A stretch of DNA of 64,000 bases, counting the filler, from Perkinsus olseni (Eukaryota): NCBI GenBank assembly GCA_013115125.1. It is 17 parts of 17 records of this genome, joined end to end, with 100 filler letters (N's around TTAATTAATTAA, not from the genome) between each part and the next. Parts side by side here need not be neighbours in the genome. Positions count along the whole stretch, not along the records: positions 7,728 to 11,483 come from JABANN010001356.1; 16 more parts are not named here. The stretch is one strand, 5' to 3'. Shown piece after piece: positions 7,628-62,887 of this stretch. The notes under the pieces are model-generated. The model was not told where the DNA came from. It made no database searches and saw only the letters and a list, made by a program, of their open reading frames with translations. The stretch's first letter is position 1, and each line of letters opens with the position of its first letter. The translations under genes were made by a program, and so were the position numbers.

Positions 7628-7730
7628 NNNNNNNNNNNNNNNNNNNNNNNNNNNNNNNNNNNNNNNNNNNNTTAATTAATTAANNNNNNNNNNNNNNNNN
7701 NNNNNNNNNNNNNNNNNNNNNNNNNNNCGC

Positions 7731-7976
7731 CAGTGTGTTGCAAAATAGTTGACTCATCAGGCCTTATCCCCCCTTCTCCCCCCATACAATGTTGTGTGTG
7801 TGTNNNNNNNNNNNNNNNNNNNNNNNNNNNNNNNNNNNNNNNNNNNNNNNNNNNNNNNNNNNNNNNNNNNNNNNNNNNNNNNNNNNNNNNNNNNNNNNNN
7901 NGGGTTCGAGATACCACACGCGCAAGTATCCGCACGAAGTTTTCCTTACGACGTTTCCCACTTTTGCAACTGACTG
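7731..7976. repeat. left terminal direct repeat (contains an N gap)
   Basis: Matches 11278-11479 on both sides of the gap; starts CAGTGTGTTGCAAAA, ends TTTTGCAACTGACTG, followed by TA. Confidence 0.92.
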
Positions 7977-8200
7977 TAGTACCACTTGAGCGCGCATTGT
8001 AGGAGACGGCTTTTGAACTTCGCATGCGCAGAAGGAATGAACTGCTGAGGACGACCCCAATGCAGCGCCGTTCAACTCAACAATTCTGATGCTCACACAA
8101 AGAGCATACAATACTATCAATAAACTACAGGTAGCTAATACGACGGAATACAGACTTCTATCATTCCACTAGGCAAAAAAAAGTTGCAGAGCAACAGTTA

Positions 8201-9778
8201 TCACGACTGATATGTGAGCACAAACGCAGCGAAGCACCGACCGCACGCAGGCAGGTCTCGCCTTCTCTCTTGACTGATGGGTGTACTTAGGTTGAGCCAG
8301 ACAAAGCGCTGGTTTAACATATTATTCTCTTCATGAGAGAGATCGCGACAGTCGAACTGACTGGGAACTGTGATGCACACTGGAGCGTCCTCGTTGTAGA
8401 TTGAGTCGCAACGACAAGATGATTTCGGCAAGGGAATGGTGAAGGGCTGCTTGCCCTCGAAAAAGCACAAACAGTCGGTAATAGAGAACCCTACCTGGCG
8501 GTTATTGAATCTAAAGTCATCAAGCAGAAAGATTTCTATGCGTTCCTCTAACAGAATGGAGAGTGGGTAGCTCCCAGACGCGAGGCCCCCTAGGGACTTA
8601 AACACGGCCCCCAAATGTTTAATTAAGAAGGATTTCCCAGATCCAGAAGGGCCGTAAATGGCCAAGTTCGCATTGCGAGACCTCCCACAGCCCAGCATCC
8701 GCAAGATACAACTCGAAAACTTCCTTTCACTTAACCCATTCTTCTGAAGTATCCCTGTGATCGCAGCAGCGGTCTGTCCTCCACAAGAACATGGGCCCTC
8801 CTGAGCTGCATCACGGAGTATGTCGACCCGTGATACATTAGACCTATCCAACTCGTGGGAGGCGTCATGTAGGGTCCATACCCGTGATAATAATGATGCA
8901 GGCGACTCATTCTGGTTAAGTAAGTAGTCTCTCACATTGCGCTCTTTATTCGCGGCGGACAGGAATGCTCTTTCAGTCCGAATCCTTTTGCTGACGATCC
9001 ACGGCGCTAAATCACTCAATCGGCGAATTCTAGACGTTTCGCCTGTAGTGCCCTGCTCTTCTGCTGCAGAGTACTCGTGTTTCGTGGGCTCACAAGGGAA
9101 AGCTGGGTGGCTTTGGGTAAGGTAAGGATGAGTGTCGGATTTTGTACAGTATGTGTATCCCCCGAGGTAACTCCGGGTTGAGCGGAAGTTTACCGCAATC
9201 CCGCGATCGCGCAGGAACCGGCCAATCCTACGCCAACGATGTCTCCTCGAAGCCGCCGTGCAAGCGTGGAAGTGAATGGATGTTCGGTCGCTGTGATATT
9301 CAGCCCCCACACATAGATAATTTAATGGAATATCGAAATGCTTGTAGGCTCTTTCCAACTCTTGCGCAAACCCCTCCTTCGAGACCTGCTCGCCTGGAAT
9401 ACGGAGATCGTCATTCCCAGCTGCCGGCCTAGGCCATGTGATTAGGTAGAACTTGGAATAATCGGGAGACTTCTGCTGAGTGCCCTGAGGTTCCTGGGTT
9501 TCCCCTCCCGTTGCCGGTTCTATGGTGAAAGGAACCTGCAGAAGACGAATAATCCCTCGTGAAGGACAATGCGGTGCATGGTCACGACGGTTGTGTCAAC
9601 CTACTGCTTGTGATAGTTGGGTTCCTTCGAGTGGGGCATCATGGATAGTTAGTTGGGAGTTGTCTTCCACTACGAAGTTGACGAGCGAGCCCAGTTGACC
9701 ATCAGTGGAGGAATTGCGGCTCAGTTGACTCAGCTGAGAGTCAGGCGAAACTGCCGCCTGTACGTCGAGGAATTCCAT
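8201..9778 (-). CDS. rep: CRESS-type replication initiator, HUH endonuclease + SF3 helicase; exons 9778-9605 and 9535-8201, ~502 aa
   Basis: RCR motif I FYLITWP (upstream of the listed ORF start, same frame), motif II IHFHA, motif III YCTK; Walker A GPSGSGKS, Walker B IFLLDDF, Arg-finger-like NQRF; 69-nt phase-0 intron GTAGGT...CTGCAG removes the in-frame TGA. Confidence 0.9.
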
Positions 9779-9792
9779 AAAGAGTTCGGGTA

Positions 9793-9884
9793 TTGATCAA
9801 CTGATCAACTGATCACCAAAAATTAAGGAGAGTGCAAGATCAATCTTCTTACTATTTTCAGCTGATCAGTTGATCAATTGATCA
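9793..9884. promoter_or_regulatory. inverted pair of (TGATCAAC)x3 iteron-like arrays just upstream of rep
   Basis: 9794-9815 TGATCAACTGATCAACTGATCA versus 9863-9884 TGATCAGTTGATCAATTGATCA: 22-bp inverted repeat with 1 mismatch. Confidence 0.6.
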
Positions 9885-10136
9885 GTTTCGAAGACGTGTT
9901 GAACGAACGAAACGTGCTAACGGGCGTTGGGGATGACTAAGCTCACTTGATTAAATCAAAATCTGTTGACCCACTCCACAAATGCTTGACATTGATCTGT
10001 AATTTGCGGCTATAGAACAAGTCGAAGATGCCAAGGAGTAATTGCCAAGACGAACGCTAGAAACTGGTTAACAACATCAATATAAACATGCAGCAAACAG
10101 TGGTACTATGACACAGCTAAAGCTTAAAATAGCAAA

Positions 10137-11213
10137 CTAACGCGCAAGCAAGGCTCCGCGGCGTTTCAAAACCTCAACGATACGGCTGCTCATGCTGTCA
10201 ATCAAGCTATTCGTGTCGATAGTGGCATAAATACGTTTCACACGGTCGATGAACTCGTCTTGATTTGAACAGGCACCCTTAGAAGCAGCTTCAGAGCGTA
10301 AGCGGAATTTGAGGGTTGAAAACGAATTTTCGATAACCGCTAAATCGGGAGAGCGAGGAGGGAAGTCCAGGTACCGACACCCATGTTGCAATAATAGATT
10401 CAAACACGAAGGAGTTCGAGGGCTTCTAAAATTATCAGCACAAATCGTCAGCTGGTTCAATGAACTCCTCTGAGCTCTCCGCTGGAGCCACGGAATTCCG
10501 TGTTGCTCGAGAAATGAATAGTAGGCGGAACTCGAATTATTCGGTATGGGAATTTCTTCTTCTCCCCACCCTATAATCCCCACAAATTTCAATTTGAGTG
10601 TATTCCCGAACCCACTACGTGTAGCTTCTTGACGATCAGAATGCTGCCAAGCTCTACTCATAGTAGCAGCTCTCCCCCCAGTCGGATCGAAGCCGATAGC
10701 CACCCCATCCATGTACATACCAACTCCATGGCGAAAGTATTCTACAATTCGCTGTGAATTGTACTCACAACTGTGTAGGACTTCCCTGGCCCATTGAACA
10801 CGTTTTCTACGGTCTCCCGATTTTTGCAACACTCGACGAGGTGTTTTACGACACTTCCATCCGCCGCGACGTAGGATGCGGGTGAATGTCGTGTACGAGA
10901 ATCCATAGTCGAGCTTCAAATAATGCGCTTTGCCCGTCAAGAATGGCTGCCGACTCCTCGCAGAGATGAAGGATCGAAGAACTCTGCGTGTACCTCGGTT
11001 GCTGAGTACCCTAGGGCGCCCAAGTCCATTCAAATCATTTGTCTTCCGCGTGCCGCCCTTTCGAACACTGCTTTTCGCCTTCCGCACTCGGGACACCGAC
11101 GACTGGCTCCGCCCAGTGTATCGAGCAATATCCCTGGTCGACCATCCCTTTCTCTTCAACCGGAGTATGGTGTCCACCTCGCTTGAGGACAAGAAGTACG
11201 GAGATTCCGGCAC
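10137..11213 (-). CDS. Tc1/mariner-superfamily transposase, DD34E
   Basis: N-terminal HTH (STRDIARYTGRSQSSVSR), GRPR linker, YMDG (D1), CADN (D2), PPRSPDLAVIE with exactly 34 residues between D2 and E; no in-frame ATG before the HTH. Confidence 0.9.
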   Translation of the reverse strand: MPESPYFLSSSEVDTILRLKRKGWSTRDIARYTGRSQSSVSRVRKAKSSVRKGGTRKTNDLNGLGRPRVLSNRGTRRVLRSFISARSRQPFLTGKAHYLKLDYGFSYTTFTRILRRGGWKCRKTPRRVLQKSGDRRKRVQWAREVLHSCEYNSQRIVEYFRHGVGMYMDGVAIGFDPTGGRAATMSRAWQHSDRQEATRSGFGNTLKLKFVGIIGWGEEEIPIPNNSSSAYYSFLEQHGIPWLQRRAQRSSLNQLTICADNFRSPRTPSCLNLLLQHGCRYLDFPPRSPDLAVIENSFSTLKFRLRSEAASKGACSNQDEFIDRVKRIYATIDTNSLIDSMSSRIVEVLKRRGALLAR

Positions 11214-11277
11214 CGAGTACTCTCGACCTGAGAAACATGTCGGTGGAAGTAGACTGGGCCCTTTCGATGCACTGCTA

Positions 11278-11479
11278 CAGTGTGTTGCAAAATAGTTGAC
11301 TCATCAGGCCTTATCCCCCCTTCTCCCCCCATACAATGTTGTGTGTGTGTCCTGGCGAATCTTTTTCTGGCTTTACTTGTATCAACATTGTATGGGGGGA
11401 GAGGGGGTTCGAGATACCACACGCGCAAGTATCCGCACGAAGTTTTCCTTACGACGTTTCCCACTTTTGCAACTGACTG
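11278..11479. repeat. right terminal direct repeat, 202 bp, with TIRs and internal hairpin
   Basis: Preceded by TA; 15-bp imperfect TIR (CAGTnnGTTGCAAAA); perfect 20-bp stem 11322-11341/11383-11402 with a 41-nt loop. Confidence 0.92.
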
Positions 11480-11583
11480 GCGANNNNNNNNNNNNNNNNN
11501 NNNNNNNNNNNNNNNNNNNNNNNNNNNTTAATTAATTAANNNNNNNNNNNNNNNNNNNNNNNNNNNNNNNNNNNNNNNNNNNN

Positions 11584-19725: not shown

Positions 19726-22700
19726 CCGTGATAACCACATGACCAGGGCTGGGCTTAAGATAGCATATTGTAATATTGGTAGAACAATTGTAGGTGGCCA
19801 GGCGTTACTTGACTATTACTCTGGCTGTGCTCCTGAAATTTTATGTATTTGTGAAGGAGGCCGTCTTGATTCTCGATGGTACTTGTCTTATGAGGTCTTC
19901 TCTGCTATTGGCGGCAGATCCTATGTACTGGTAAGGAAGGATATTATGGCTAATAAATCCTTCTCAGTGCAAGATCTGGTGGGGGTACAGATAGGTCTTA
20001 TCTGGATTTTATGTCTTTATTGTGATATCACCGAGGACATGGATGTCACCCTTGATAGGGTAGAAGACAACTTGGTACGGACGGATGATAAATGGGTGAT
20101 ATTCATGGATAGTAATGCCTATAATGAGTTATGGGGTAAGGGCCCCTTTGGCAGTACCCGTCAGAAGACGCGGGGAACCAAGCTGGCTCGATGGATTGAA
20201 GGAAATGATGTTAGAATCCACAATGACCCCTCTATGCCGACTTTTATTAGACCGGTTCCTGGGGGTGGTGTCAACGGCTATCAGTCCTCTTCCATTGATG
20301 TCTGCCTCTCTTCGGAGGTGGATATCGTTGGCTGGTCAACGGTGGATGGTGTTAGGCCCTATGACCACCTACTGATAGAGGCGATGGCGGTTACTGACAA
20401 GGCATCCATTAAGGTGAAGCGGGTCTACACTCGCATTAAGGATAAGCCTGCTTACTATGATGATCTGAAGTCGGCGGCCTCTGATTGGTATCATGACCTT
20501 CCGGATTTTATGCTCGCCATGGACATTGATGTTGCTATTGCTGATGTGGTCGATAAGATCAAGACGGTCAAGAACCGACACTNNNNNNNNNNNNNNNNNN
20601 NNNNNNNNNNNNNNNNNNNNNNNNNNNNNNNNNNNNNNNNNNNNNNNNNNNNNNNNNNNNNNNNNNNNNNNNNNNNNNNNATGCTGATGGTTGCTCTCAT
20701 CAGCAGATTTGAGAAGGCCCTTCCCCCTCACTCTGATTTGTCTCGCCGGTTGTCGAGGGAAAAGACACTAGCATGGCTGTGCAAAAGGCGACTGAGGTTA
20801 TGAAACAGTTGACTGATGAGGGGAAAGCTGTTATTGCTCTAAGTCTCGACATGAGGGGGGCCTTCAGTAATGCCCGTCATGATGTGATATGCACTACAGT
20901 AGAAGAGATGTGTGGGTCCCCGGTCCTCTTCAATCTGGTCTCTAGTTACTTACACCGAAGAAGATGCTTTTATAAAGGGAAGATGAGGCTCTCCATGTCC
21001 TTCAGCGGCACTCCGCAGGGAGGTGTAGTCTCACCATGTGTGTACCGTATATTTCATACGGTTCTGATGGGCATCATTGAAAGCTGTTCTACGGATGATG
21101 TCAGATTAATTCCTATCGTATATGCTGATGATACTCTAGTCATTTTATCTGGTGATAATGATCAGGCGGTGGTGGAGGCTGTGGGCAGGCTCCTGGATAC
21201 TCTGGCTGAGCAGCTCCCTGCCCTTGGCCTGAACATAAGCGAGGAGAAGAGTGTCCTACTGGGTGATAAGGCCTTCATAGAACGGTATGACTGTGTTCGT
21301 GGCATAAAAGTGAGACCTGCTATCGGTTACCTTGGTATGAGACTCACCCTTGGTGGTTCCTGGCTACCTCACTTTGAAGAAGCTGTAGCCCGGGCCCGAA
21401 GGGAGATTGAGATGTGTCGACGCCTCGTAGGGAAGGATGGTTGCTCTGCACTCAGCCCCAAGGGACGAGAGGTGATTAGGAACCACATTACGGGCGTCCT
21501 GGCCTATGGTCTGGTATGCTGGGGTGACCGCTTACGATTCAAGACCACTCGTGATAGGATCTCTGCGGTCGACCTCCGACTGGAGAAGGTTCTACTTGGT
21601 GTCCCAGGGACAGCTAATCCTGGCCTATGTGCCCTCCTGAGTGATAGGAAGGCTACTATATACGAGCGATTGTGTGTCCGTTATGCGTCATTATGGCTTA
21701 GAGGTCTTCCCCCAAGCCCAAAGTGGTGGGGAACGGTGGTCAAGCAACCATATCCCGTGAAGGGCACTGTGGATCATACTGTTACTAATGCTACCCCCCT
21801 CCCTAGGGGATGGGTTCACATTGGCAATGGCTGTGAGGTCACTGGTACGATAACTGAGGGTCTGGCTGGTGGAAAGGTGATCTTCCCGGAGGTTGAGGTG
21901 GTCATTTATACTGATGGTAGCCGAACTCCGGCTGTTGATGACAATGATGATGATACTACTCGGGTGGGAGCAGGCTATTATTCAGATTCCGAACTGATAG
22001 GGAATGGGCGGGTGAAGCTTCCGCACTTCGCCAACATTGCTCAAGCTGAGTCCCTAGCAGTATTGGAAGCTATGAGGAAGGCGGCTGAGAGCGGCGGCTT
22101 TTCCACCATATTGATTGCCTCTGATTCTCAGGCAATCTTGAAATCCCTCCTTTCGAGGAGGAAATCACAGTTGTCCTCTGATATTGTTGACCTGGCTCTT
22201 AGCGCCGACATTGACTTTAGGTTTATTTGGGTCCGCGGACATGCTGGCTCGACTGGCAACTCGATTGCCGACGGTATGGCTCGTAGCGGCTCCATCGTGG
22301 GCACCTTCAGGACTGTCCCGATACCAGGCAGTCACCTACGAGAGTTGGTATCTCAATCGGTACGGACGAGGCTCCCTTTGAGCACCCACTGGCAGGAGAT
22401 CCAGAACAAAACGATTCGGAGTTTCATCACGAGCAACCATCATTTGGCTATTTTGAAGCGTTCTATCCGGTTTCGTATGCATCGGCATGCCTTACGAGCC
22501 ATATTTGGCTTACTCAGGACCGGTCGCTACAGGTCAAGGAGTAATAACTTTGTTAACCCTAATTGTGCCAGGTGTGGTGGGGTTCCGGATGATACTGTCC
22601 ATCGCTTGATGTTCTGCTCGGCTCACCAGGAGAGCCGCTCGAAGATTCTTGGAATGGTTCCGAGGAGGATTTATGGTCCCTCTTTCTTTCTGACTCGGGC

Positions 22701-22749
22701 AAGCCGTATTAACAGTCTTGGAAGGTTGGTTCGGAGGATGGGTATTTAG
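19712..22749 (+). CDS. LINE ORF2: AP endonuclease, reverse transcriptase, RNase H, C-terminal Zn finger (split by gap)
   Basis: APE: YCNI, CICE, MDSNA, SIDV, YDH; RT: LDMRGAF, GTPQGGVVSP, YADD, YLG; RNase H: YTDGS, AE, SDSQ, WVRGHAG..GN.IAD; CARC...H...C. Confidence 0.9.
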
Positions 22750-26855: not shown

Positions 26856-28528
26856 CCTTTCGCAACTACGAGTCGGCTCGGGCGTTGCCCGGGGAAGTGA
26901 AAAGAGAATTGGAGAGATCCGTAGAGCGTGGACACATGGTGAAGTTGGCGGAGGGTGAGGAACCTCCACCGGGAGCGATTATTAGTAAAATTGCCTTGGT
27001 GGAAAAGCCAAATAGGATCCCTCGAGCCTTTAGACTGATAAATGATATGCGACGTAGTGGACTGAATGATCTGGTGACTTCTCAGGGGAACCTGACCGAA
27101 ACTGTGGCCCTGCCGGGATTGCGATCGGTAGGACAGTTGCTGCGCTGCGCCCTTGAGAGCTACGGCGATAGTGTCAGGATCATCGAGGTGGACGCCAAAG
27201 ATGCCTTTAGGCACCTCAGCGTGGCGAGGGAGGATGTTGAGTTTTTGTTTGTGGCAATCGAACGAAACGGATGTGAGGGGAGAGACCAATCGAACGAGAC
27301 GGGGCAGAAGTTCGACTACTACTACCATGTAAGGCTCCCATTTGGACTCGTTTCGAGTCCGTGCCTCTGGGTACGCGCGTATAGTTTGTGCCACAGGATC
27401 ATGCGAGCGATACTCTCCCTCTTATGCGTGTTATATGTTGATGATGGGTCGTGGGCGTCTTGCGACGCAACGTGCCTCAAAGATTTCCTGGCAGTGATAG
27501 TATTGTCCAAGGTGATGGGGGTGCTACTGGAATTAGCAAAGGCCAGAGTGTCGAATTCTCCGAGAACGTTAGGTTTTCAGTGGGATCTGCACACGGGCAA
27601 GCTGTCGATTCCGGATGAGAAGTTGGAGCTGATAGGAGGCCAAGGCGATTATGTCTTGCGTAAAGCGGGAGCAGGCCAAGCTGTGGAGTTAAACGTGGTT
27701 GAATCTCTCCTAGGCCGCCTGACGTGGGCCACACAATGCTTCACGAGATATCGCTGTCACCTGGCTCCTATATTTGCATGGTTGAAGGCAGTGAAACGTA
27801 AGAGGAATGCCGTGTCGAAAGCTCCCATTCGTTCGGCTTTTCTAGGTTCGAATGTCTGCGACAAGATACGTCTTTTGCTGGGGCTGTTGAGGAGCGAGCA
27901 GGTGCGGGCGTTCTCATTGCCTGAGATTATCGGGCGTTCAGTCGATGCAGATTGGGCGGCTTCGAGGTCTACAATTATTACAGACGCTAGCCTTGAGGGG
28001 CTCGGAGGTACGATTTGTTCAGTGAGTAACGGGCGTACTCTACGCCTGTGGTTCGCGCTGAATTTCAGACAATCTAGCGACACGGCACTTCGAAAGTTGA
28101 TGGGAGACACGTTTGTCTCAGGGGATATTTCGAGGCTGGAACTCTTTGCGATAGTGTTGGGTTTGCTCATTGTGGGCGAGATCCAAGGCGAGTCAGAGGG
28201 TGAATGCACTATCCTAAGCGATAATACGGCGGCGATACATGTAGTAAATAAAGGCTCAAGCAGTGTCCCTCGCATGGCGGAGCTGTGGGCCAGGTTGGTT
28301 GCGTGCAGGCGTGTGGGCCGGCAAGTGCGAGCCTTCCATGTGGCGGGCGTGAGTAACGAGATTAGTGATGATTTATCTCGGGGCGTAAGGCCTCGTCAGC
28401 GAGTAGCGCGGGCCCTCGGAAGGCGTGTGCCTGTGACGAAGTTCATCGAGCGCTTGCTGGGTGCTTCTGTGGGCGAGCTACCGGTATATTTTACGGTTAG
28501 TGAGGAGGAGGAGCTCCTTGGGCCTTGA
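26856..28528 (+). CDS. DIRS-type reverse transcriptase + RNase H
   Basis: RLINDMR, DAKDAF, LPFGLVSSP, YVDD, TDAS, ISRLELFA, SDN, HVAGVSNEISDDLSR. Confidence 0.9.
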
Positions 28529-29976: not shown

Positions 29977-30730
29977 TCCTGGGTCATATATGTTGTCGTG
30001 GTGTCACCATGTTTCTGTGTGCGACTGTTTCGAGGAAGCGTTTTTCTTTAGAGAGGTGTTAGAGTAGGAAGCTGGGGGAGTAAGGGTGAATCTTTCTTTG
30101 CCCGCCTTGCCCCAGCTGAGTTGGGGTGGCAGGTTTTCTGACTGCCTGCCTTCCTCGTGTTTCCCTCTGAAGGCCAGCCGGCGCAGTTTGGGCATCCACA
30201 GATTCTCGTGATGGTTTTCTGTATTCTCTTGTGGAGAGGATAGGCGAGGTGAATGACTTTTGCGGGAGTGCTGCTTAGGTGGATCAGGTTGTGGCCGAAC
30301 GTGGTGCTATGTCCATCTGGATTTGAGGCATAGCCTTCCTGGAGTGATCGGGCTTGTATTCATGTTGGTAGGGTTTGCACGTGGGTGCCTACTGTGACTG
30401 GAAAGTCTGGGTAGTGGTTTAGTGGCCCGATAATAGTGCGTTGTAGTGTGTAGCGGCTGTGGCAGTGGCTCCCGGGTCTGCATTCGCGAATCCGGTCTCG
30501 AGGAGGTGTCGGACACCTGGTGTCCCCTCTCGCGGGTTCTGNNNNNNNNNNNNNNNNNNNNNNNNNNNNNNNNNNNNNNNNNNNNTTAATTAATTAANNN
30601 NNNNNNNNNNNNNNNNNNNNNNNNNNNNNNNNNNNNNNNNNCCACTTCAAACAGTACGGTTATCTATGTCAAACTCAAACCAGAGCAGTGTTCTCACTGG
30701 GCAGACTACTAACACATCTCCGCAACTGGA

Positions 30731-33700
30731 ATGGTTTTCGACTTGGACACTGAGGTCAACGTCCCTCTGATCCTAAACCCTGGCTCCATATGCCAACGTC
30801 TAATAAGGGTTTGGTGCTATGTTGGTACTCAGCCTGCCCCAGCTATCCTACTCGGTGCCAGCACGATGACCAACATGAAGGCAGTGATCAACCTTAGTAC
30901 CCACACAGTCCACTGCGAGGCATTGACGGACGCCAAGGGCAACCCCTACCAGGTCAAGCTGCTCCCCCGGCTCGAACCTAATGGCCCACGTCCTCTGGCG
31001 CAGCTGAGTTCCGACGGTGATGATATCGAGTCCTTCCTCGCGTCACTCTCTGATGATGAGCTGGATGAGTGGCATGAAGCCAGAGCGGCTACACTCCCGG
31101 ACTTCCGGCTGTCTTTCCCCTTGAAAGACATGGTCCCGTCGACGCTGTCAACTACGCGAAAGTACTCCATCCCGTCTAAGCTCAAGCCGAGTCTCAATGC
31201 CAAGTTGGATCAACTTCAAGCAGGTGGGGTCATCAGAACAGTCGACAAGTGCACCATTCCCCCAGACGCCGTCATCTCTCCGGGCTTTGTCAAGGAGAAG
31301 AAGGGACAAGTCATGAAGGCTCCCGATGGCTCCGAGATCCCCAAGGTCCGGCTGCTCTGCGACTTCACCATTCTCAACTCAGTCATAGAGAGTCGCCTGG
31401 TGTGGAATACGGCCGTCGACAACATCAACGAGAACCTACACTCCATCCCTCATGACTCTAAATTCTTCTACGCCTGTGACATCACCGATGCCTACTATCA
31501 GATAGGCTTGGACTCATCGGTGTGGAGGTACACCTACTGCCGCTTTGATGATGAGTACATCTTCTGGCTACGACTACCGCAAGGTATGAGCCTTGCGGCA
31601 ATCTACTTCCCATTCGCGCTGAAATGTCAGCTGGACCTCTTGTACAAGGAGAAGGGCATCTGGCGGAAATGGTGGGTGGTCTACCTTGATGATATTCTGG
31701 GACATGCCACTACCAGACAACAAGCCACTGGGCGACTTCGGATCCTACGGTCTGCATTAAGGGCTCTTAAGCTCCCACTCTCGGACAAGGTCCCCATTGA
31801 GGTCTCTACGGAGGTGGATTGCGTCGGAGTCGCTGTCTCCCAAGCCGGTTGGTCGTTATCATCCAAGAACAGGGGCAAGCTGATTAAGGCCCTCAATGCC
31901 ACTCCCAAAACGGCAAAGCAACTGCATAGCCTCATCGGGGTGTACAACTACGGGTCTACCGGCTTCGTTACATCGAAGGCATCGGAAGTGGCCACCAACT
32001 TGGCGGTTCTGCATACTGCAGTCCACACCAAGCCCTTCAAGTGGACACCCCAGTGTCAGCACGCCCAGGACTTCCTACGTGAACACCTGGCTTCTTCCCC
32101 TCGAGCCTTCCTTGCCTTTGACGACCTTCTCACTAAATGTAAAGGAGGCCCCTATTCCCTCGCCATCACCGTTGATGCCGCTGATGTTGGGATAGGGGGG
32201 CACCTCTGGATGGTAAGACAGCCCGCTCGGGCCACGTCCATCCACGACTTGGCTAATGCGGAGATTGCTACTCTCATTTCGGCCTTCAGCCTTATCCTAG
32301 ACTCTCATCAGAAGGCGTGGCACACCTTCGAGAAGGAGTCCTTCGCTATCTACTCGGCTGTTATGCGGTGGCGAAGTCTATTGATTGGAGCTACGCGTGA
32401 TGATACGGCCGCTACGTACTCCCTGGATGAATGCTCCATCAAGATCTTCACCGACAGTACGGTAGCGGTGTCACGTGTGGGCAAGGGCTTCGACATCGAC
32501 CTTACTTCATCCAAGGTTACCCTCAAGGCAAAGCGCTTCCGGTCCTGGCAACTGGAAGTATCTGAGATGTCTTACTTACCTATCTGTGTGGTTCACTCCG
32601 ATGGGACCTCCAACTCAATCTCCGACTTCTACAGCAGGTATACTGAGTTCTTACAGGACTCAGCTCCGAGTACCGAGCACGCTGTGGTCGAGGTTGGTTC
32701 CCAACAACAGCCACTACAACTGGGTGACGAGATCAGTTCCACTCTCTTCATGGCCCCCAATGAGGACGAGGACCCCATCGACTCCGACGCAGACGACACT
32801 AGCAAGCCGGGAGAAGTGGTACATCTTTGCCTTACCCAGGGGCAAGCGGCGGTGATTGAGACGTCATACCATACCGATGAGTCCAAGTATCTCAATGTCC
32901 CTATCAGCCTGGTATGGAAGATTCTCAATGACCAAGATCATCATGAATTTGCCGATAACCTAGTCCAACGAGCCAAGGCCTGGATTGCGGGTGGCAAATT
33001 CACTAGGCGGTTGACCGAGAGTCCTCACTATGGTATGTTCACCCAAGCCACTAAACGACAACAAGACCTTCGAGATCTACCTTGGGTCCTGGTTATTCCC
33101 AGCACAGCCATATTCTACGAGGAGAACCTGATCAACCATTGCTACGACCCTCAGCAGGAGGCAACTTCAGCGAGGGACTCTCTTATGGCCTATGTCCATG
33201 ATGGCCGATGGCATCTGAAGTATGTGGCGGCATTGGAGCTACTATTCTCAATCTGTTGGTGGCCATCCATGGCAGTCGATCTCAAGGAGTACATCGAGGA
33301 CTGTGACTACTGCTCACGAACCGCCAAGCAAGCGTCCCTACCGTATCGCGGAGTCCTATCTGGCGATCAACGGTTCGACATTGTCTGCATGGACCACAAG
33401 AACTTACCCGGCCGGGCAGGATTGACCTTTACCAAGGTCCTTACCCTGACATGCCCAGCTTCTGGCTCTACCAGGTTTGTGCCTCAAAGGGTAGCCGATG
33501 CGGCCCAAACCGCCTTGGACCTTTATGTATCATGGGTAGCGCTCTGCGGGTGGCCCCGCCAAGTAGTGACAGATGGTGCATCGAACTTTTGCTCCCGTTT
33601 GTCAGAAAGACTCTACGCCTTGGGAGGCATTCGGCATAGGACGGCTTTGACCGCGGCTCCTACTGGTAATGCCGTAGTTGAGAGACGGCACAAGATCCTG

Positions 33701-34255
33701 GGTGAAGTCCTCAACTGGTATGACTCAACTTGTGGCATCCAGACCGACGACGACGTTCGTATGGCCTTAGCTGCTGCGGAACAACGCATTAACCATGTGC
33801 CCGATAGCAAGGGAACTACGGTCTATGCGCGAATGTTTGGTATCCCTCCCAACTGGGGCCCTCTTCAACGTCCTACTCGACTGGAGAATAACCAACAGCC
33901 ACCTAACGACGACGATCTCATCAAGGCGATAAATGACATCACCAACCACCTCACCAAGGATTTCAACCTCAGGAGAGACGCTAAGGCTAAGCAGAACGAG
34001 CTAAGGGTCTGCAACGTCACCGATGATACCAAGTACAACAATAACCGCCTAAGTTCTGCTAGCATTGGTGACAAGGTATGGATTCAAGCCAACCAACAAG
34101 CGGCCATCACCAACATCTACTATGACTCTCAAGGCAGAGCGAGGGCGATTGAGGCAGGTGGCTCCTTGTGGAACCCTAGGGATATTTCCCTGGTGCGGCG
34201 AGACTTGATCAACTCCATCCCTGCGGCTCCAATGTTCAGAAGTGACTCCATCTAG
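30731..34255 (+). mobile_element. Ty3/Gypsy pol (protease C-terminus, RT, RNase H, integrase), uninterrupted
   Basis: DITDAYYQI, LPQG, YLDD, DAA...EKE...TDS...N.ISD, H..H/CDYC zinc finger, D-D-E (MDH, TDG, VER). Confidence 0.92.
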
Positions 34256-36189: not shown

Positions 36190-37638
36190 TCAATGATACA
36201 TTTGATTGTATGTATATTGATAGAAATAGTTAAATACTGGTACATGTACTGCAGTAGCTGATAGCCCAACCCAGAATAATGTCAATGCATGATGTAGACC
36301 AGATGGCATTGAAGCAAAGAACCATCTTAGAGCATTAGCCATAGCTGGATCTCTCTTCGACATCTGTATACATCTACTACTAGGTTGGCGCCATTTAAGG
36401 AAGCTCTCAATACCGCATACCATATATTGCGATATAAAGAATACATTCCATGATATGAATGATTCATAACGATTAACAGCGGGTAAGAAAGATGTAAATG
36501 GTATCCAATGTGCAGCACTTGATACAATAAATGTAGCTAAAGATGCAAAGTTCTTGGAGAATCCCAATACATGGTAAAGAGGATGGTATACATGTCTATA
36601 TAGGACACGTTGAAATGGTGTATTCCACAATCTCCAGAATACACCCACTTCGTCAGCAATCCAGAAATTCTGACAATATGGTTCCAATCTGTATCCTATT
36701 AACTTGAAGGTAAAATCCATACCATCCGATATAGCAGTGAATAGATTTACACTTGCTACTGCAAGTGCCATAGCTGCGATGTATTTGCCAACGCTTATAC
36801 CAATGTATGGTGATAGTGTAATGAATATACTTGAAGCTATATGATTGTAGATACTATAAGATACTATGCTATGACCAATACAATTCATCAACGATTCACT
36901 GTCAAAAGTCAAAGTAGGTACTCTTTCAGTACGTTTAGTAACACCCTGATAGGTAAGCATATGTACCTGAATAAATATACAACATAATTGTTGTACCGAT
37001 GATAATGATGACAATAGACGAATAATACTAATGATAATGAAGAGTATTATTACTATTCTATCCATTGGGAACCTCTCCATATCAATGCCATCAGCTGTCT
37101 TTGTACTGCAATCAGTAGTAGCGGGTGAATCAGCTGTCTTTATACCATCAAATGCGTAATCAACATATCGCCATATCTCACAACAGTATAAATGAAAGAA
37201 CATGAATATTCTCTCAGCTGTCGATAGAGCATCCGTAGGAGCCATCCATGGTACCTGAATATTATAACAACACTCGGGTAATGATACTGTTAACAATACT
37301 AGTGCTGGAATTGTTATTATTACCAGTAACAAAATTAGTACGTAGGTGAAAGCCAGTTTAGGGTATCTAACAGATGCTAGTGAAACTATAATCAATTGAA
37401 TATAGACGCTTAGGAGCATTGACGATACTGGTAATAGCATGATTATATCTTGTAACCCTTGTAGCGCAGTATTATAGAATAATAACATCATATCGTAGAA
37501 AGACGATGATGAAGGTGATAGCTTGGCAGCAGCCTCTGCTACTTCAGGCAGTATGGCAATCATCGTCATCAACAACAACAACAAAGCTGGAGAGGTACTT
37601 AATAGATCTGGCCGAGGAGCCTTATCATGAGGCAGCAT
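36190..37638 (-). CDS. MBOAT-family acyltransferase (DGAT1/sterol O-acyltransferase-like), 482 aa, intronless
   Basis: Multi-pass hydrophobic ORF with FWRLWNTPFQRVLYRHVYHP and TFIVSSAAHW (catalytic His position). Confidence 0.85.
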   Translation of the reverse strand: MLPHDKAPRPDLLSTSPALLLLLMTMIAILPEVAEAAAKLSPSSSSFYDMMLLFYNTALQGLQDIIMLLPVSSMLLSVYIQLIIVSLASVRYPKLAFTYVLILLLVIITIPALVLLTVSLPECCYNIQVPWMAPTDALSTAERIFMFFHLYCCEIWRYVDYAFDGIKTADSPATTDCSTKTADGIDMERFPMDRIVIILFIIISIIRLLSSLSSVQQLCCIFIQVHMLTYQGVTKRTERVPTLTFDSESLMNCIGHSIVSYSIYNHIASSIFITLSPYIGISVGKYIAAMALAVASVNLFTAISDGMDFTFKLIGYRLEPYCQNFWIADEVGVFWRLWNTPFQRVLYRHVYHPLYHVLGFSKNFASLATFIVSSAAHWIPFTSFLPAVNRYESFISWNVFFISQYMVCGIESFLKWRQPSSRCIQMSKRDPAMANALRWFFASMPSGLHHALTLFWVGLSATAVHVPVFNYFYQYTYNQMYH

Positions 37639-38355
37639 GTCAATTTACCAATTTCACTAATTTCGATTTAAAGACCGTCGGTCTCGACGGATGCAATACA
37701 ATTGGAGGGGCCTGAACAGCGCCTTAAACGTGATCACAACCTCCATCAAGTTCCTGAAGTTCCAGCTTGAATTAAGAGGAGCGTTCTCGGAATCTAACGC
37801 TGAATTCCGCTCGCCCGGCTGGGCAAATTCGCGGGCAAAGTACATTACGGGCAACGACACTGTGAACAGAATCTAAGGGGCAAAGTACAAAATCCAAGGC
37901 ACCTGACCAAAATCCAAGGCGCTGTCCCAGGTGACAGCGCGGGGCGAGCGAAATGTGCTCCTTGTCTTTTGGCCTGTGCGCGTTTTGACGACCGTAGCGT
38001 TGCGTTGCTGGTCGTCACGCAACCACGCACTCCCATATGGTCTAGCGCCTCAACGTGGCGTGGGGGTGATACTCATTCGGAGTATGCGAAGCTAGACCGA
38101 CTNNNNNNNNNNNNNNNNNNNNNNNNNNNNNNNNNNNNNNNNNNNNTTAATTAATTAANNNNNNNNNNNNNNNNNNNNNNNNNNNNNNNNNNNNNNNNNN
38201 NNTTGGGGGGCGAATTTAGGGCGAGCGAGATCAGCCTGTCGTACAGTATTGGGGTCGTACAAAATTGGGGGATTCACGGGGCTCACACCTTTCCCAGAGC
38301 AGGCAAACTGAAGGACATAGTAGTCCTTTCTTTTCAGTTTTACTGTGTCCAGTCG

Positions 38356-45700: not shown

Positions 45701-48700
45701 CATGCATCGCGCACTAATACGACCTCCATCGCAACACAATGAATGCCTAACTCGAGATCGCACGTCTAGCGGCGTTGCTGCGAGTGTGCCTAGATCTCCA
45801 ACTTGAAAGGAGGAGACCTGGCGGTGGTGGTTCATACCCAGTCGGTGGAAAACATTGTTCTCCCGGTAAATGGCCAGAGTGTTCTCGATGTTGGTCTTGA
45901 GATCCTTCAAGAAACCACTTGGGTCGTCCTCGCAGAGCTTCTGGAAACCATCTTCATGACGTAGGCTGTTAACCAATGCACCCCAGTCATCTCGAGGTAG
46001 TTGCCCGAAGACCAGCTGATAAGGACTGATCTTCTCACGGAAGGTCGGGAACCGGTTATGTACTCGGGCGGCAACAGTCAACGCCTCTGGCCATGATGCC
46101 GACCCGGACTGGGAGATAACCTGACGGACACACCGCTTCAGCTCTTGATGGGCTCGCTCACATTTGCCATTCATGCGAGCCAAGTAGGGCAGAGAAGTCT
46201 TCTCCTCGATCTGGGCTCGGGCCTTCCAAGCCCTGACCACTTCAGCCACGAAGGCCCCGTCACGATCATGTAATATAGTACGGGGTAGATCGAAGTCCAT
46301 TCCCCAATACTTCAGCAGAGTCGCCACGAACTCGCCTCCGCACCGCGTCCTTGTGGCAGCGAAGCGGACGTACCCAGTGCAGAGATCCATGATCGTTAGG
46401 CTGAACCGGAACTGCCCCACCGAAGACACCTCGTAGGGACCAGTATAGTCCACGCTGATGGCCTCGAAGCGACCAGGGTAGCGGCGAAGGCTGAACTTCC
46501 CAAGACTGCGGTTAGTGCGGGCCGTCTCCACTTGGCAGGTGTGGCATTTACTCGTCCATGTCCGGCAGCAAGTTTCCATCGACGGCCACCAACAACGTTG
46601 ACGGAGTAGACACTTCATCATTGCCGGGGAGGGGTGACCAGTGGCTACACGCGAGTGAACCAGCCAGCATAGGTACTCACGAATAGGAACAGTCTTGATC
46701 TCATTCTCAATCTCGACACTAATGGTGCCCACCGGTATCACCACTAACCACCGAGGCAGGTGAGTAACCGGCTCAAGGGAGCTCATCATTAGACAATGGT
46801 CGAAGAGGAGGAAGCGATCCAGCCAGTCGGGTACCACCGTGGTGGGGTCATCCTTAACCGTCACCAATTGGTAGATCTCAGACACCGTCTTGCCCAGGAA
46901 CTTGGTCTGGTCATCTCGAGGTTGGGCTACTCGACAGGCTTCTTGGATAGGACCAACCAACGCAGGTGGAGCCCAGTCGCAGTCGGACAAGAAACCGGCG
47001 TCGGGCTCCCCCGACTCGGCAACCGTTTGAAGACATTGCTCCGTCTGTACCGCCTCATCATCTCGGTTCAACAAGTGGTTGGTGAGCCTGCTGAGCGCAT
47101 CAGCTAGGCCGTTCTCCACTCCCTTCACATGCTTGAAGCAGATGGACTTGAAGATCAGCATATCACTTGTCGAGTTGAACCAGCGAAGCCAACGTTGTCC
47201 TCGTTGCAAAGACGGTAACAGCCGCTCGCCCTTCTCCATGGTGGCCCACTTGTACAAGCTACCAGTGTTGTCAGTCAAGACGTATGTGGTCGTCCTTGAG
47301 GATATCAACCACGGTCGGAAGCGACAAAGGGCGACGTAGACCGCGTAACCTTCTCGATCCCAAGAGGGCCAGCTCCGAGAGGCTGAATCAAGCACCTTGG
47401 AACCCCACATGAGTAGACTACCGGACTTAGCCAAGGTGTCGGCAGAGACGTCCTCATCGACGTTGATCGACCACAGACAGAAACCAATAGCCACGTCACT
47501 GGCGTCGGCCTGTATCACATAACGTCTAGTGGTACTGGGTGCCGTCTCCTCGACAGAGTGGAAAGGCAGAAACCGCTGTTTGAACCGTAGCCGGAGGCGA
47601 TCATAGGCGACGTCCGCTTCCGGTGTCCACTTGAGCCTACCCGAACCCTTGAGTAAGTCGTTGAGAGCTCCCATGTCCTCGGAGAACTCGGAAGGCACAC
47701 GGACATAGTGGTAGGCGGTCCTGCAGTATTGGAGTAGGCCAATAAGAGACCTCAAGTCGTCTCGGGTAGTAGGCTTGGACTCCGTCATCTCCTGCAACTT
47801 GTCGATCTTGTCTTGAGACACCGACCAACCTCCCGGAGTGAGCTCCATGCCAAGGGCCGCCAGCCTTCGCCCAGCCTTCACCACCTTCTCCAACGAGACC
47901 GCCACTCCACAGTCCTGGAAGAACTTCAGTAGCTCCTGTACCTTCTGGTTCACCTCGTGCTCCGAGCGACCAAAGATGATGAGGTCGTCGACGTACACCC
48001 TCACGCAGCTGACATCGATACCACCTCGCCGAAGTAAAGCCGTTATCCAGGAGCTCCAGAAACTCGGACTTAGTGCTAACCCCTGAGGAGCCCGATTCCA
48101 TCGAACGTATCGATGACCGAACCGAGTGATGAGGTACCTCTTGCTGGAGTCGACCAGGCGCACGTTGAAGAATGCGTCGCGTAGGTCGATGGACGCAAAG
48201 AAGCTGGCGTCAGAGGGGATGGATGAGAGCAGAGACATCACATCTGGGCTGACCTCGTTGCAGTCACTGGTGTCCAACCGAAGATTAACCTTCCGGAGGT
48301 CGACGATGAATCTCCACTTCTGAGTGCCCTTCGGGATGGCGAAGCCATGGGAAACCCAGGGTTCGGGCCCCATCAAGTACTGAGCCTGTAGGTCAATGTC
48401 CTCCACGATACCACGGCTAACAAGGTCGTCCAGTATCTTGTTGCCAGCGTCGAGAGCCTCTTGGCGCATGGGAATATAGACGGCCGTCAGCGGTGGGTTC
48501 TCACGGGTCACTCTCAGTTCCAACTCAGGTAGTGAATCTGTAGAGAACGTCCTCAGGACCTGCCCGACCCACTTGTCTGAGTTGAGGTTACCACCCAGCT
48601 CCAGCCTGACCTGACCGTCGACTAAGTGGAGGTTGAGACCGATCTTGTGGAGGCTGTCAAGACCCAGTAGTAAGGGAGACTGGCCATCAATAACTCGAGC

Positions 48701-49339
48701 CCAGATGTCGAAGGCCTTGGAGACGGTACGGCACCGAACCTTGAGTAGTCCTCGAACTAGTGACTCGTGTCCGCCAATACCCTTGCACCGCTCTTGACAG
48801 GGTTGAACTCGGTCCTTCTGCGACGAGTCGAGCATGTCAATGCCGATGTAAGACACCGTAGCACAGGTGTCAATGTAGACATCCATGACCCTAGAGTCTA
48901 CCGTTAAGGAGACCCAAAGCAACCTTGAGGTGTCGGTGACCACCTTATCCATCCCGCAAGTGGAGGAGTGGATGTGTTGGACTCTAGCCTGAGTAACTCC
49001 GGTTCTCAACGCACGTAGAACCTCGTGCACCGACTCCCCCGACTCAGAGTAGAAGTCGGATGAGTCTGAACTCGTCGGGCTATCGACGGGTTCACTACCG
49101 GTAGGGTCATCTAGGGTCTCGTGGTCAATCTCTTGAACTCGGGGAGAGTTGTTAGGCTCCCCCGACCCACCAAGGTTACCATTGTCGATGGTCTGGGTGG
49201 CGTGAACACGATGCTCGGTCACAGTCTTATAATTGTCCGGAGCCCTTGCCGCTGCAGCCCTTCTCGACCGAAGTGTCCGAGTAGCCGGTGCACTGGTCTC
49301 CCTCGACCGGTCCTGTTGCCCTCGTACCGCGGCCTTGGT
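45701..49339 (-). mobile_element. Ty3/Gypsy gag-pol region: protease, RT, RNase H, integrase
   Basis: IDTCATVSYI, DLRDAF, APQG, YVDD, ADAS, TDN, HVKGVENGLADALSR, H..H/CHTC, D-D-E (VDY, HDRD, CER); frame open to both contig ends. Confidence 0.93.
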
Positions 49340-49439
49340 NNNNNNNNNNNNNNNNNNNNNNNNNNNNNNNNNNNNNNNNNNNNTTAATTAATTAANNNNN
49401 NNNNNNNNNNNNNNNNNNNNNNNNNNNNNNNNNNNNNNN

Positions 49440-61004: not shown

Positions 61005-61228
61005 CTGGAGATGCACCCGTTAAACGCCAAATCGCGTTAATCACGATGTGATAAACGCGAAAAACGCGAAGTGATAATCGACTTTATCACATCGCGAAAA
61101 AAGCTACTGAAAACCGCCTTCACGAATCGTGTTTTTTCGCGATTTATCTTTTTTCTCGCGATTTTTCGCGAAGTGAAATTCGTGATGTGTTTTTCGCTAG
61201 CGTTTTTCACTACGCGGGTGCATCTCCA
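61005..61228. mobile_element. 224-bp MITE-like insertion in pol
   Basis: 14-bp perfect TIR TGGAGATGCACCCG; TCGCGA/AAAA-rich self-complementary interior; removal restores the frame. Confidence 0.8.
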
Positions 61229-62887
61229 TTGTTGCCTATGAAGAAGAAGCTGCCATATACTACGTCCGGTCGCACTCTGGAAAGCGGTTCTATGTCTATG
61301 ATGTCTCCCCTTCCTATGTTGAGAGGGCATCGAAGGGTTCGTATAGGCACGAGATTCGTTCCCATACTAAATTCACGCGAGCCCCTGCTGAAATACGAGT
61401 GGCAGCAGCCGATACTTTGCGTGAGATGGTTATTGTTGGCAAGCTGGAGCCTGTCATCGCCGACGATAAGTTCGACACCCATTATGGTTGCCTACCCCCC
61501 GGTCTTGTTGCTTGCTCCAATACTTATCCTGTTGGTGGTGACTCTTCGGGACGACGTGTTCGGCCAATATTCCCGTACTTAATGTTGAACAAGAAGACTG
61601 ATGTGAAAGCCTTCAAGTTCCACCAGCAAGAACTGGCGAAGATCCTTACTAAATCCCGATATTATGCTGTGTGCACTTGGACCGATATTGCTGATGCTTT
61701 CATGTCCATTCGGTGTTCACCTCGAGCGCGTAGCTGTTTGGGTTTATATTGCCCAGAAATTGAAACGTGTAAGGGAAAAGTGAGTTATGAGTCCCCTCCT
61801 CAGGCTCTGAGAGGCTGGTTTCGTTTCACTCGCACTCCTTATGGCTACTCGCCATCTCCGTGGGTGCTAGAGCAATGTGCTCAGCACGCCCTCCGGAGGG
61901 GCTCGATCGAGTTTAGGTTGCCAAGCACCGTTAGGTATCAGCCAACTACCCCTGCCAACGACTTTAGCGACGAATCGGTCGAGAAGTTGGTCTCTAGCGA
62001 AAGCTCGCCAAGTGTCAGTCCGGAGCTTTTGAACTACATGGACGACTGTCTGGCTATGCTCGGCTTGACTCTGGTCTTGATCCCCAACGCGCTCCGTGAG
62101 CTTTGTTCGGCTATGGTGGAGTATGTCAGATCGATACTGCTGGATGCACCTGAAGGATCCTAAGACTATTACCTTCGAGCACAAGGACTTTACTGCTAAT
62201 GGTGTCTACTACCACTCCCCCTACGTCATTGGTTGGCCACCCGAACGTCTTCGTGCTGTCAAAAGTGTGAGACTATCGACACCGGTATCCTATCGGGAAG
62301 CGTTAGAGTTCCTTGGTATCCTTCATGTCGTGGCATGCTGGTTACTCCCACCGTGGATTATTCTTCGCAAAAACTGTTTGCAGAGCCTACTGCAGCAGAG
62401 ATTGCATGAAGATAATGCTGGATGGGATGAAGCTATTGATGATGACTGTTACCCTCTGTTGGAAGAGCTCATGAGTTCTCTCCAATCACGGCAGTTGGAG
62501 CAGTATAATGTGTTCCGTCGGATTATTTGTTGGGCTCCGCTGCATATCTACTGTGATGCCTCCTCGTATGCATATGGCTATGTGGTTGGGCAATGCTACG
62601 AGGACATTTCGGTCAACTTAGATGAGCAGCAGAAGAAAGATTTGGGTGCTGAGCTGGCTAGCATCCATGGCGATCTTGCTCCGCGTCAGGATGCGACGGG
62701 GCGATTATTTATTCCACTGTGGTTCCGCCAAGTTCTGTTCTCTCGTGTCGGTCAGCTTACTGCCCACATCAACACCAAAGAAGTCTTCGGAGCGACCTCT
62801 GCTATTGTAGGCGTGATATCAACTGTTGGTAGCCTACATCAAGCCCGCTTGGAGATTTACACCGACAATGCCAGTTGCCTCAAGGTG

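Follow-up and report, generated by a model that had tools for sequence, protein, structure and literature searches.

A Tc1-type transposase and an NS1-like Rep between directly repeated terminal modules in Perkinsus olseni: a candidate two-enzyme mobile element

We find that a Tc1-type transposase and a Rep protein of the HUH-SF3 kind are enclosed by two directly repeated terminal modules in Perkinsus olseni, and we favor the reading, to which we give a probability of roughly 0.6, that they form a two-enzyme mobile element with a 3,705-bp integrated form and a 3,503-bp amplified head-to-tail form. The window, by which we mean the whole 64,000-nucleotide stretch that was analysed and along which all unprefixed positions are counted, consists of short scaffolds chained through N linkers. 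The unit is one entire scaffold of the 39.9-Mb assembly (G000:C394, window 7728-11483), with a module at its right end. In its integrated form it reads GC-module-transposase-Rep-module-GC, the two modules flanking both genes (Table 1). These are the only two long ORFs within the unit, and neither a third gene nor a capsid ORF was found in it.

Table 1. Features of the unit, in window coordinates.
Feature	Position	Strand	Remarks
GC target-site duplication, left copy	7729..7730	+	flank runs on in C999/L004; empty paralogues
Left terminal module, direct repeat of right module	7731..7976	+	73 + 75 readable bases
TAG flank of inner junction (YAG in the family)	7977..7979	+	YAG also in L022, L023
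Rep exon 2: HUH endonuclease, helical domain, SF3 helicase, C-terminal CxxC	8201..9535	-	
Rep intron, 69-nt GT-AG	9536..9604	-	
Rep exon 1	9605..9778	-	start Met placed by similarity to N-terminus of Perkinsus olseni P0003
Tc1-type transposase ORF of 387 aa between stops	10137..11300	-	two HTH regions + DD34E
CTA flank of inner junction (CTR in the family)	11275..11277	+	
Right terminal module, complete, 202 bp	11278..11479	+	
Left inverted end (TIR) of right module	11278..11292	+	matches right end 13/15
TGACTC(A) motif	11297..11303	+	alignment of 7 modules
Arm 1 of inverted pair = C-run + CAATGTTG core	11322..11341	+	
41-nt spacer between arms	11342..11382	+	
Arm 2 of inverted pair	11383..11402	+	
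Right inverted end (TIR) = integrated unit's outer end	11465..11479	+	
GC target-site duplication, right copy	11480..11481	+	flank runs on in C2655/L005; junction also in run X6

The initial annotation had described each repeat as a pair of inverted ends around a stem of 20 perfectly paired bp that encloses a loop of 41 nt. The inverted ends are reproduced in the right module, and a match as good was reached by none of 1000 dinucleotide shuffles. The perfect stem around its loop is likewise present in the right module; it was reached in 0/300 shuffles, where the longest stem was 11, and the folding of the module gives z = -6.3 and -5.5. For the left module the description holds in part: a 98-N scaffold gap at 7804-7901 covers the loop and the second arm, so only the ends and the first arm can be read, all readable bases being identical to the right module. 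The NANTATTAC nonamer, noted earlier as not visible in the loop, is indeed absent from both strands of 7902-11479. Words resembling it in the Rep 3′ region of two relatives (L022, L023) were set aside, as they are unmatched here and the regions barely align.

The integration signature was read from the flanks. The few flanking bases on the scaffold (3 and 4) extend into the scaffolds C999 and C2655, with 73/73 bases matching in each. At three empty paralogous sites (L038, L039/L045 and L046), which are 82–90% identical to these flanks, the left and right flanks overlap by GC in every case, and we therefore place a 2-bp GC duplication around the whole 3,705-bp unit. TA was considered for the whole-unit duplication and rejected because the empty paralogues give GC; TA occurs at the inner junctions of this copy only. 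GC is found at five of six clear host junctions in the family, the exception being GT in L021, and at 5/9 when three junctions with inner-type flanks, the two of L033 and the far one of L024, are added. A solo module (L034) is flanked GC...GC; a search for empty sites of the solo modules L034 and L033 returned none. For this lineage the assembly has a single flank on either side, so the duplication was read from one full insertion. The earlier suggestion that the inverted ends are the TIRs of the transposase is upheld by a unit bounded by a 2-bp duplication, though one of GC.

The module is carried by three other diverged lineages in the same genome, two of which keep the module-transposase-Rep order (39–51% protein identity). 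This order is seen in L021 and L022 at 39–46% identity; L023, which is 91% identical to L022 in DNA, combines a Rep (51%) with a complete module downstream; in L024 a module is accompanied by the 5′ portion of a transposase; and L033 and L034 are the solo modules. All seven aligned modules have in common a CAG end, TGACTC near the transposase-side end, and an inverted pair with a spacer of 40–41 nt. At the body-facing junctions, CTR precedes or YAG follows the module in 7/7. The inner-junction word TAGTAC is not kept in the relatives. The inverted ends of the relatives match at 13/15 positions in L023, 12/15 in L034 and 10/15 in L021, and a search with the TIR-plus-TGACTC pattern gave no further modules. 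That the two genes form one unit, as had been proposed from the single copy, is supported by the recurrence of gene order and module in diverged relatives and by the duplication around the whole unit; transposase and Rep travel together.

The transposase is of the Tc1/mariner type by profile, language-model and fold searches. Its catalytic triad, D178-D269-E304 (DD34E, P0001 numbering), is nearly invariant in alignment A5. Among Pfam models, HTH scored above the cut-off and DDE_3 and HTH_Tnp_Tc3_2 below it, while the language-model search placed the protein in Tc1/mariner (Atlas, 0.97) and its fold matches Mos1 (Foldseek E 1e-8) and Sleeping Beauty. The profile search retrieved distant Tc1 proteins only, the best alignments being mostly 21–39% identical and none of the matches named Perkinsus; a single-sequence search gave no relatives, so that neither search yielded Perkinsus homologues outside this genome. 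Sequence searches of the PDB gave nothing informative. The ORF lacks an in-frame ATG ahead of the HTH and the contig of run X6 is unspliced across 10718-11479, both of which speak against the two-enzyme reading. An acceptor-like pyrimidine-AG is found ahead of the HTH here (window 11228-11304, minus strand) and in L021, L022 and L024, and a short intron starting within the module could give the transposase its start in this copy; against this, the ATG is missing in the relatives and run X6 is unspliced there.

The Rep has the residues of an HUH endonuclease (motif I, H59-x-H61, Y94 and Y100-x-x-K103) and of an SF3 helicase (Walker A G266-K272, D311 and R381), numbered on window:8204-9448. In an alignment of 89 homologues, picked from about 157 retrieved, the HUH, tyrosine, Walker and arginine-finger residues are kept in 83–89. 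The intron is skipped in contigs of the RNA-like runs X6 and X9 (2/2) and not in those of the DNA runs X1 and X3 (0/2), where the assignment of X6 and X9 to RNA is a guess, no run being recorded as such. The AF2 model (pLDDT 94.7) has its best fold matches in AAV2 Rep68, papillomavirus E1 and parvovirus NS1, profile searches agree with this, and the nearest Atlas clusters are cnidarian and Cossaviricota. By these matches the protein is an NS1/AAV-Rep-like HUH-SF3 protein, closer to these than to CRESS Reps and not a typical member of the latter. Named homologues come from Perkinsus olseni, P. marinus and P. chesapeaki, and the NS1-like family comprises 664 representatives at E <= 0.001, which points to a wide and mostly unnamed group. 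Searches with alignment A4 found 0 loci each in metagenome and viral contigs, and a search of plasmids gave no relatives. A search with a distant Rep, P0011, brought up one 1,750-bp metagenome contig, whose length is insufficient to show gene context, and had no match among viral contigs.

Further Rep genes in the genome show some variety. The Reps of L023 (L023:3622-5055), L022 and L021 are 85–89% identical to a P. olseni protein (P0157) or 74% (P0003, a value that takes in intron and frameshift regions), values well above those between the lineages, which suggests either old lineages common to several species or exchange. A distant second group of Rep-like genes (21–28%) is found at L026:2031-3356, L026:111-800, L026:6628-7197, L012:324-1628 and L052:7338-8711. 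The L052 gene keeps an HUH-like motif and matches PPV_E1_C; in the copies of L026, several of them in tandem, and L012 the motif is apparently lost, and these are possibly domesticated. TGATCAA words are repeated upstream of Rep in two lineages (window 9790-9890; L021 at about 2250-2270) and could be a promoter element; at the host loci L080 and L069 the word adjoins the half-site motif described below or shares its short contig.

The amplified form was seen in sequencing runs. Twenty-one runs were listed, eight of which contain half or more of the sampled words, and the contigs of four were examined. In the DNA runs X1 and X3, from two studies, a head-to-tail joint of 11404 to 7902 delimits a unit of 3,503 bp, at a depth of 4203.5 in X1 and 3247.6 in X3. 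Coverage extends over the whole unit at about 4,060–4,200x in X1 and 2,800–3,250x in X3, with higher sums at variant bubbles, and the depth over 11382-11483 is wholly accounted for by the unit contig in both runs. One X1 contig runs through both module ends unbroken, with no loose ends reported. X1 and X3 have no flank contigs, though contigs can lose rare branches; in the RNA-like run X6 the module continues into both the inner sequence and the right flank. If the unit were single-copy, about 178 Gb (X1) and 146 Gb (X3) of sequence would be required, so the unit is likely to be multi-copy, as read from its depth. The unit thus occurs as multi-copy circles or tandem arrays, which short-read contigs do not separate; free circles and concatemers are the most likely form.

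We suggest the following life cycle. The Rep would copy the unit by rolling circle into circles or concatemers. In such a multimer the transposase, acting as an integrase, would bring together the left end of a module and the right end of the module that follows, and insert this head-to-tail piece at GC. This use of the outer ends of successive modules would account for the nesting of a full TIR pair in each repeat, for the conserved inner junctions and for the occurrence of GC-flanked solo modules. Such solo modules could arise by pairing of both ends of one module, or by recombination between the repeats. The Rep could also release unit-length circles out of the directly repeated integrated form, in the way that rolling-circle viruses are released from partial tandem repeats. 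The stem arms may bind a host factor that also acts at tRNA and snRNA loci, with a use as promoter, boundary or tether in place of a nick hairpin of the CRESS type. Counting against this two-enzyme model, no nick site was identified.

The same unit could be explained as a chromosome-only composite transposon, in which the modules flank a transposase and a captured Rep and the head-to-tail junction reflects a long tandem array at one locus. The single left and right flank around a collapsed unit in the assembly, and contigs that fit an array as well as circles, agree with this explanation, which we nevertheless consider unlikely, given that the X1 contig is unbroken across both module ends, that X1 and X3 lack a right-flank contig (though a rare branch can drop out of contigs), and that the catalytic and helicase residues of Rep are kept beside the transposase in lineages only about 40–50% identical. 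An NS1-like Rep, a very high depth and a circular-type junction would also suit an undescribed DNA virus of protists, of which the unit would be a segment or satellite, the capsid gene lying on another molecule and the integrated copy being endogenised. This appears improbable to us: the unit has no third gene and no relative among viral contigs, all lineages with enough sequence retain a Tc1 transposase and TIRs, and the intron of Rep is host-like. An assembly artefact, or the chance meeting of a viral fossil with a MITE and a Tc1 transposase, might be suspected from the small scaffold and the gap within its left repeat, and has already been largely refuted, since modules are found independently ahead of the transposase and behind Rep in L022 and L023, empty paralogues delimit the duplication, and independent runs cover the unit; we regard it as very improbable.

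A further alternative concerns only the site at which Rep acts and is compatible with the remaining model, namely that the stem-loop itself is a single-stranded origin nicked by Rep. NS1-type Reps act on hairpins, the stem is perfect over 20 bp in this copy, an inverted pair is found in 7/7 modules with a spacer of conserved length (41 nt here, 40 in six relatives), and it is located in the repeated segment, where replicational release requires an origin. Against this, the nonamer is absent, the sequence of the loop varies across the seven modules, and the arms are fully complementary in this copy only, being mismatched at variable positions in 6/7 modules. Of the checks that had been proposed, the covariation in the stem does not reach significance and the loop is not conserved among the relatives. 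Double changes occur in 2/20 stem pairs, which 160/500 shuffles reach, and controls in which the stem was slid score as high or higher (0.09–0.10 vs 0.076 for the stem); the paired-cell percentage (8/500 shuffles) and the covariation score (11/500) exceed most shuffles, which relatedness alone can cause. The same motif pair is moreover found near U6, SL-like and tRNA genes, at host loci where the inspected pairs have no TIR ends of the module. We thus doubt that the stem serves as a classical origin and give Rep nicking of the loop only a small chance; a Rep site at some place in the module is possible. The initial proposal of one module with sites for both enzymes accordingly stands for the TIRs of the transposase and not for the stem-loop as the Rep origin.

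We favor another explanation of the arms. A search for the half-site motif gave 36 matches, vs 0 in the control, at 31 distinct sites; modules account for 11 of them, and the remaining 20 are spread over 13 other contigs. Nine of these 13 carry a tRNA, U6, U4/U5 or SL-like gene within the fetched stretch; four have no such gene, one of them scanned by ARAGORN only, a program that at default settings reported no tRNA in 9 loci where relaxed runs and Rfam did detect them. Agreement between the arms at four variable positions is 2.6/4 within a locus vs 2.0 between loci, and for host motif pairs 2.7 vs 2.0. As the simplest reading of the sequences, the arms would be putative binding sites of a host factor, held at fixed spacing and adjoining the start of the transposase.

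The host motif consists of a C-run, 3–4 nt and CAATGTTG, often as an inverted pair 46–72 nt apart, and adjoins U6, U4/U5 and tRNA genes and an SL-like gene. We observed it at L004:294-399, L054, L038, L055:719-814, L056 and L035/L048, and further at L076/L083, L073/L080, L075, L037, L069 and L082. The SL-like gene near it matches PmaSL1 at 19/22 positions, as given in the available part of its description (PMC3101222). The motif is a candidate regulatory element of tRNA, snRNA and SL loci, and the analysis thereby exposes a candidate cis-element in Perkinsus. The element in the window lies inside a repeated tRNA-like/U6 cluster (the L004/L005 flanks), ~220 bp from a host motif pair, and the solo module at L034:1446-1634 lies ~30 bp from a tRNA-His gene; a preference for Pol III gene clusters is possible from these two cases.

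The element works like an integrating rolling-circle replicon and is not strictly a Tc1/mariner element (by target), a CRESS virus (by nonamer and capsid), a parvovirus, a Replitron or a Helitron. With CRESS-DNA viruses it shares a Rep of HUH plus SF3, though with best matches to AAV Rep68, E1 and NS1; it differs in having no stem-loop nonanucleotide and no capsid gene in the unit. The head-to-tail junction at full depth, read from contigs, would fit a circular genome, single- or double-stranded, and a tandem array alike. From Parvoviridae, whose linear genomes end in hairpins, it is set apart by direct repeats, an internal inverted pair with its 41-nt spacer, the head-to-tail junction and the lack of a capsid. 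LTR retroelements have direct terminal repeats with inverted tips, one-repeat circles and solo repeats, a likeness in architecture only, as reverse transcriptase and gag are absent from the unit. DDE transposases are joined to a replicon in plectroviruses and inoviruses, which have other replication enzymes and capsids. Teratorn, as far as the accessible account of it goes, also couples a replicon with a DDE integrating enzyme and uses a different replication enzyme, and the same combination with other replication enzymes is described in part for transpovirons (10.64898/2026.10.13.758929).

The nearest precedent, judged from the available part of its report, is the geminivirus-like transposon of Tuber melanosporum, which likewise has Rep-like and transposase ORFs within one eukaryotic repeat with TIRs (PMC3198968). 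That element has a geminivirus-type Rep, interrupted ORFs, 37-bp TIRs and no obvious TSD, and the same part of the text reports neither direct terminal repeats nor a head-to-tail form (PMC3198968); the unit described here has an NS1-like Rep, open frames, a GC duplication, a head-to-tail form, and direct repeats of about 200 bp that each hold a TIR pair. Elements of planarians and Hydra (PEVE/PIVE and DENSOV_HM) resemble it in having NS1/E1-like HUH-SF3 proteins in extrachromosomal or integrated form, while a DDE transposase or direct repeats nesting TIRs are not reported in the description at hand (PMC3198968). Tc1/mariner elements cut with a 2-bp stagger at a TA target, according to the sections available (PMC7827188); our unit resembles them in its HTH and DD34E transposase with the Mos1/Sleeping Beauty fold, CAG ends, TIRs and 2-bp duplication, and departs from them in its GC target, its four TIRs in two direct repeats, its second, replicative enzyme and its amplified head-to-tail form. 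Replitrons and Helitrons are eukaryotic mobile DNA with an HUH endonuclease too, as summarised in the part consulted (PMC10288648). The former have a Y1 HUH enzyme with no helicase and possess short direct terminal repeats, in contrast to the fused SF3 helicase, 202-bp repeats and DDE gene found here; the latter fuse Rep to an SF1B helicase and generally make no TSD, unlike the SF3 helicase, 2-bp duplication and DDE transposase of our unit (PMC10288648).

No description of this element was found in the literature searched, with Repbase, subscription journals and supplements outside its scope, and the term Perkinsus is absent from the main text of PMC3198968, PMC10288648 and 10.64898/2026.10.13.758929. 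We tentatively propose, with less confidence than we place in the two-enzyme reading, a new eukaryotic group of nuclear plasmid-transposons, in which an NS1-like Rep would run high-copy rolling-circle episomes, a Tc1-derived integrase would be retargeted from TA to GC, LTR-like repeats would allow release, and a cis-element borrowed from tRNA and snRNA loci would perhaps steer the element to such clusters. If the model is true, a DDE transposase and a rolling-circle initiator take part in one life cycle in a eukaryotic nucleus here, a compact natural example that could mark a step between plasmids, transposons and small DNA viruses. The GC target of a Tc1-type enzyme would, in addition, bear on how the target dinucleotide is read.

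Elsewhere in the window we noted reverse transcriptase ORFs of retroelements at 20737-22749, 26858-28528, 30713-34255, 45701-49387 and 61201-62163, two of which have integrase zinc-binding and RNase H-like domains, and an ORF of the MBOAT acyltransferase family at 36190-37644 on the minus strand.
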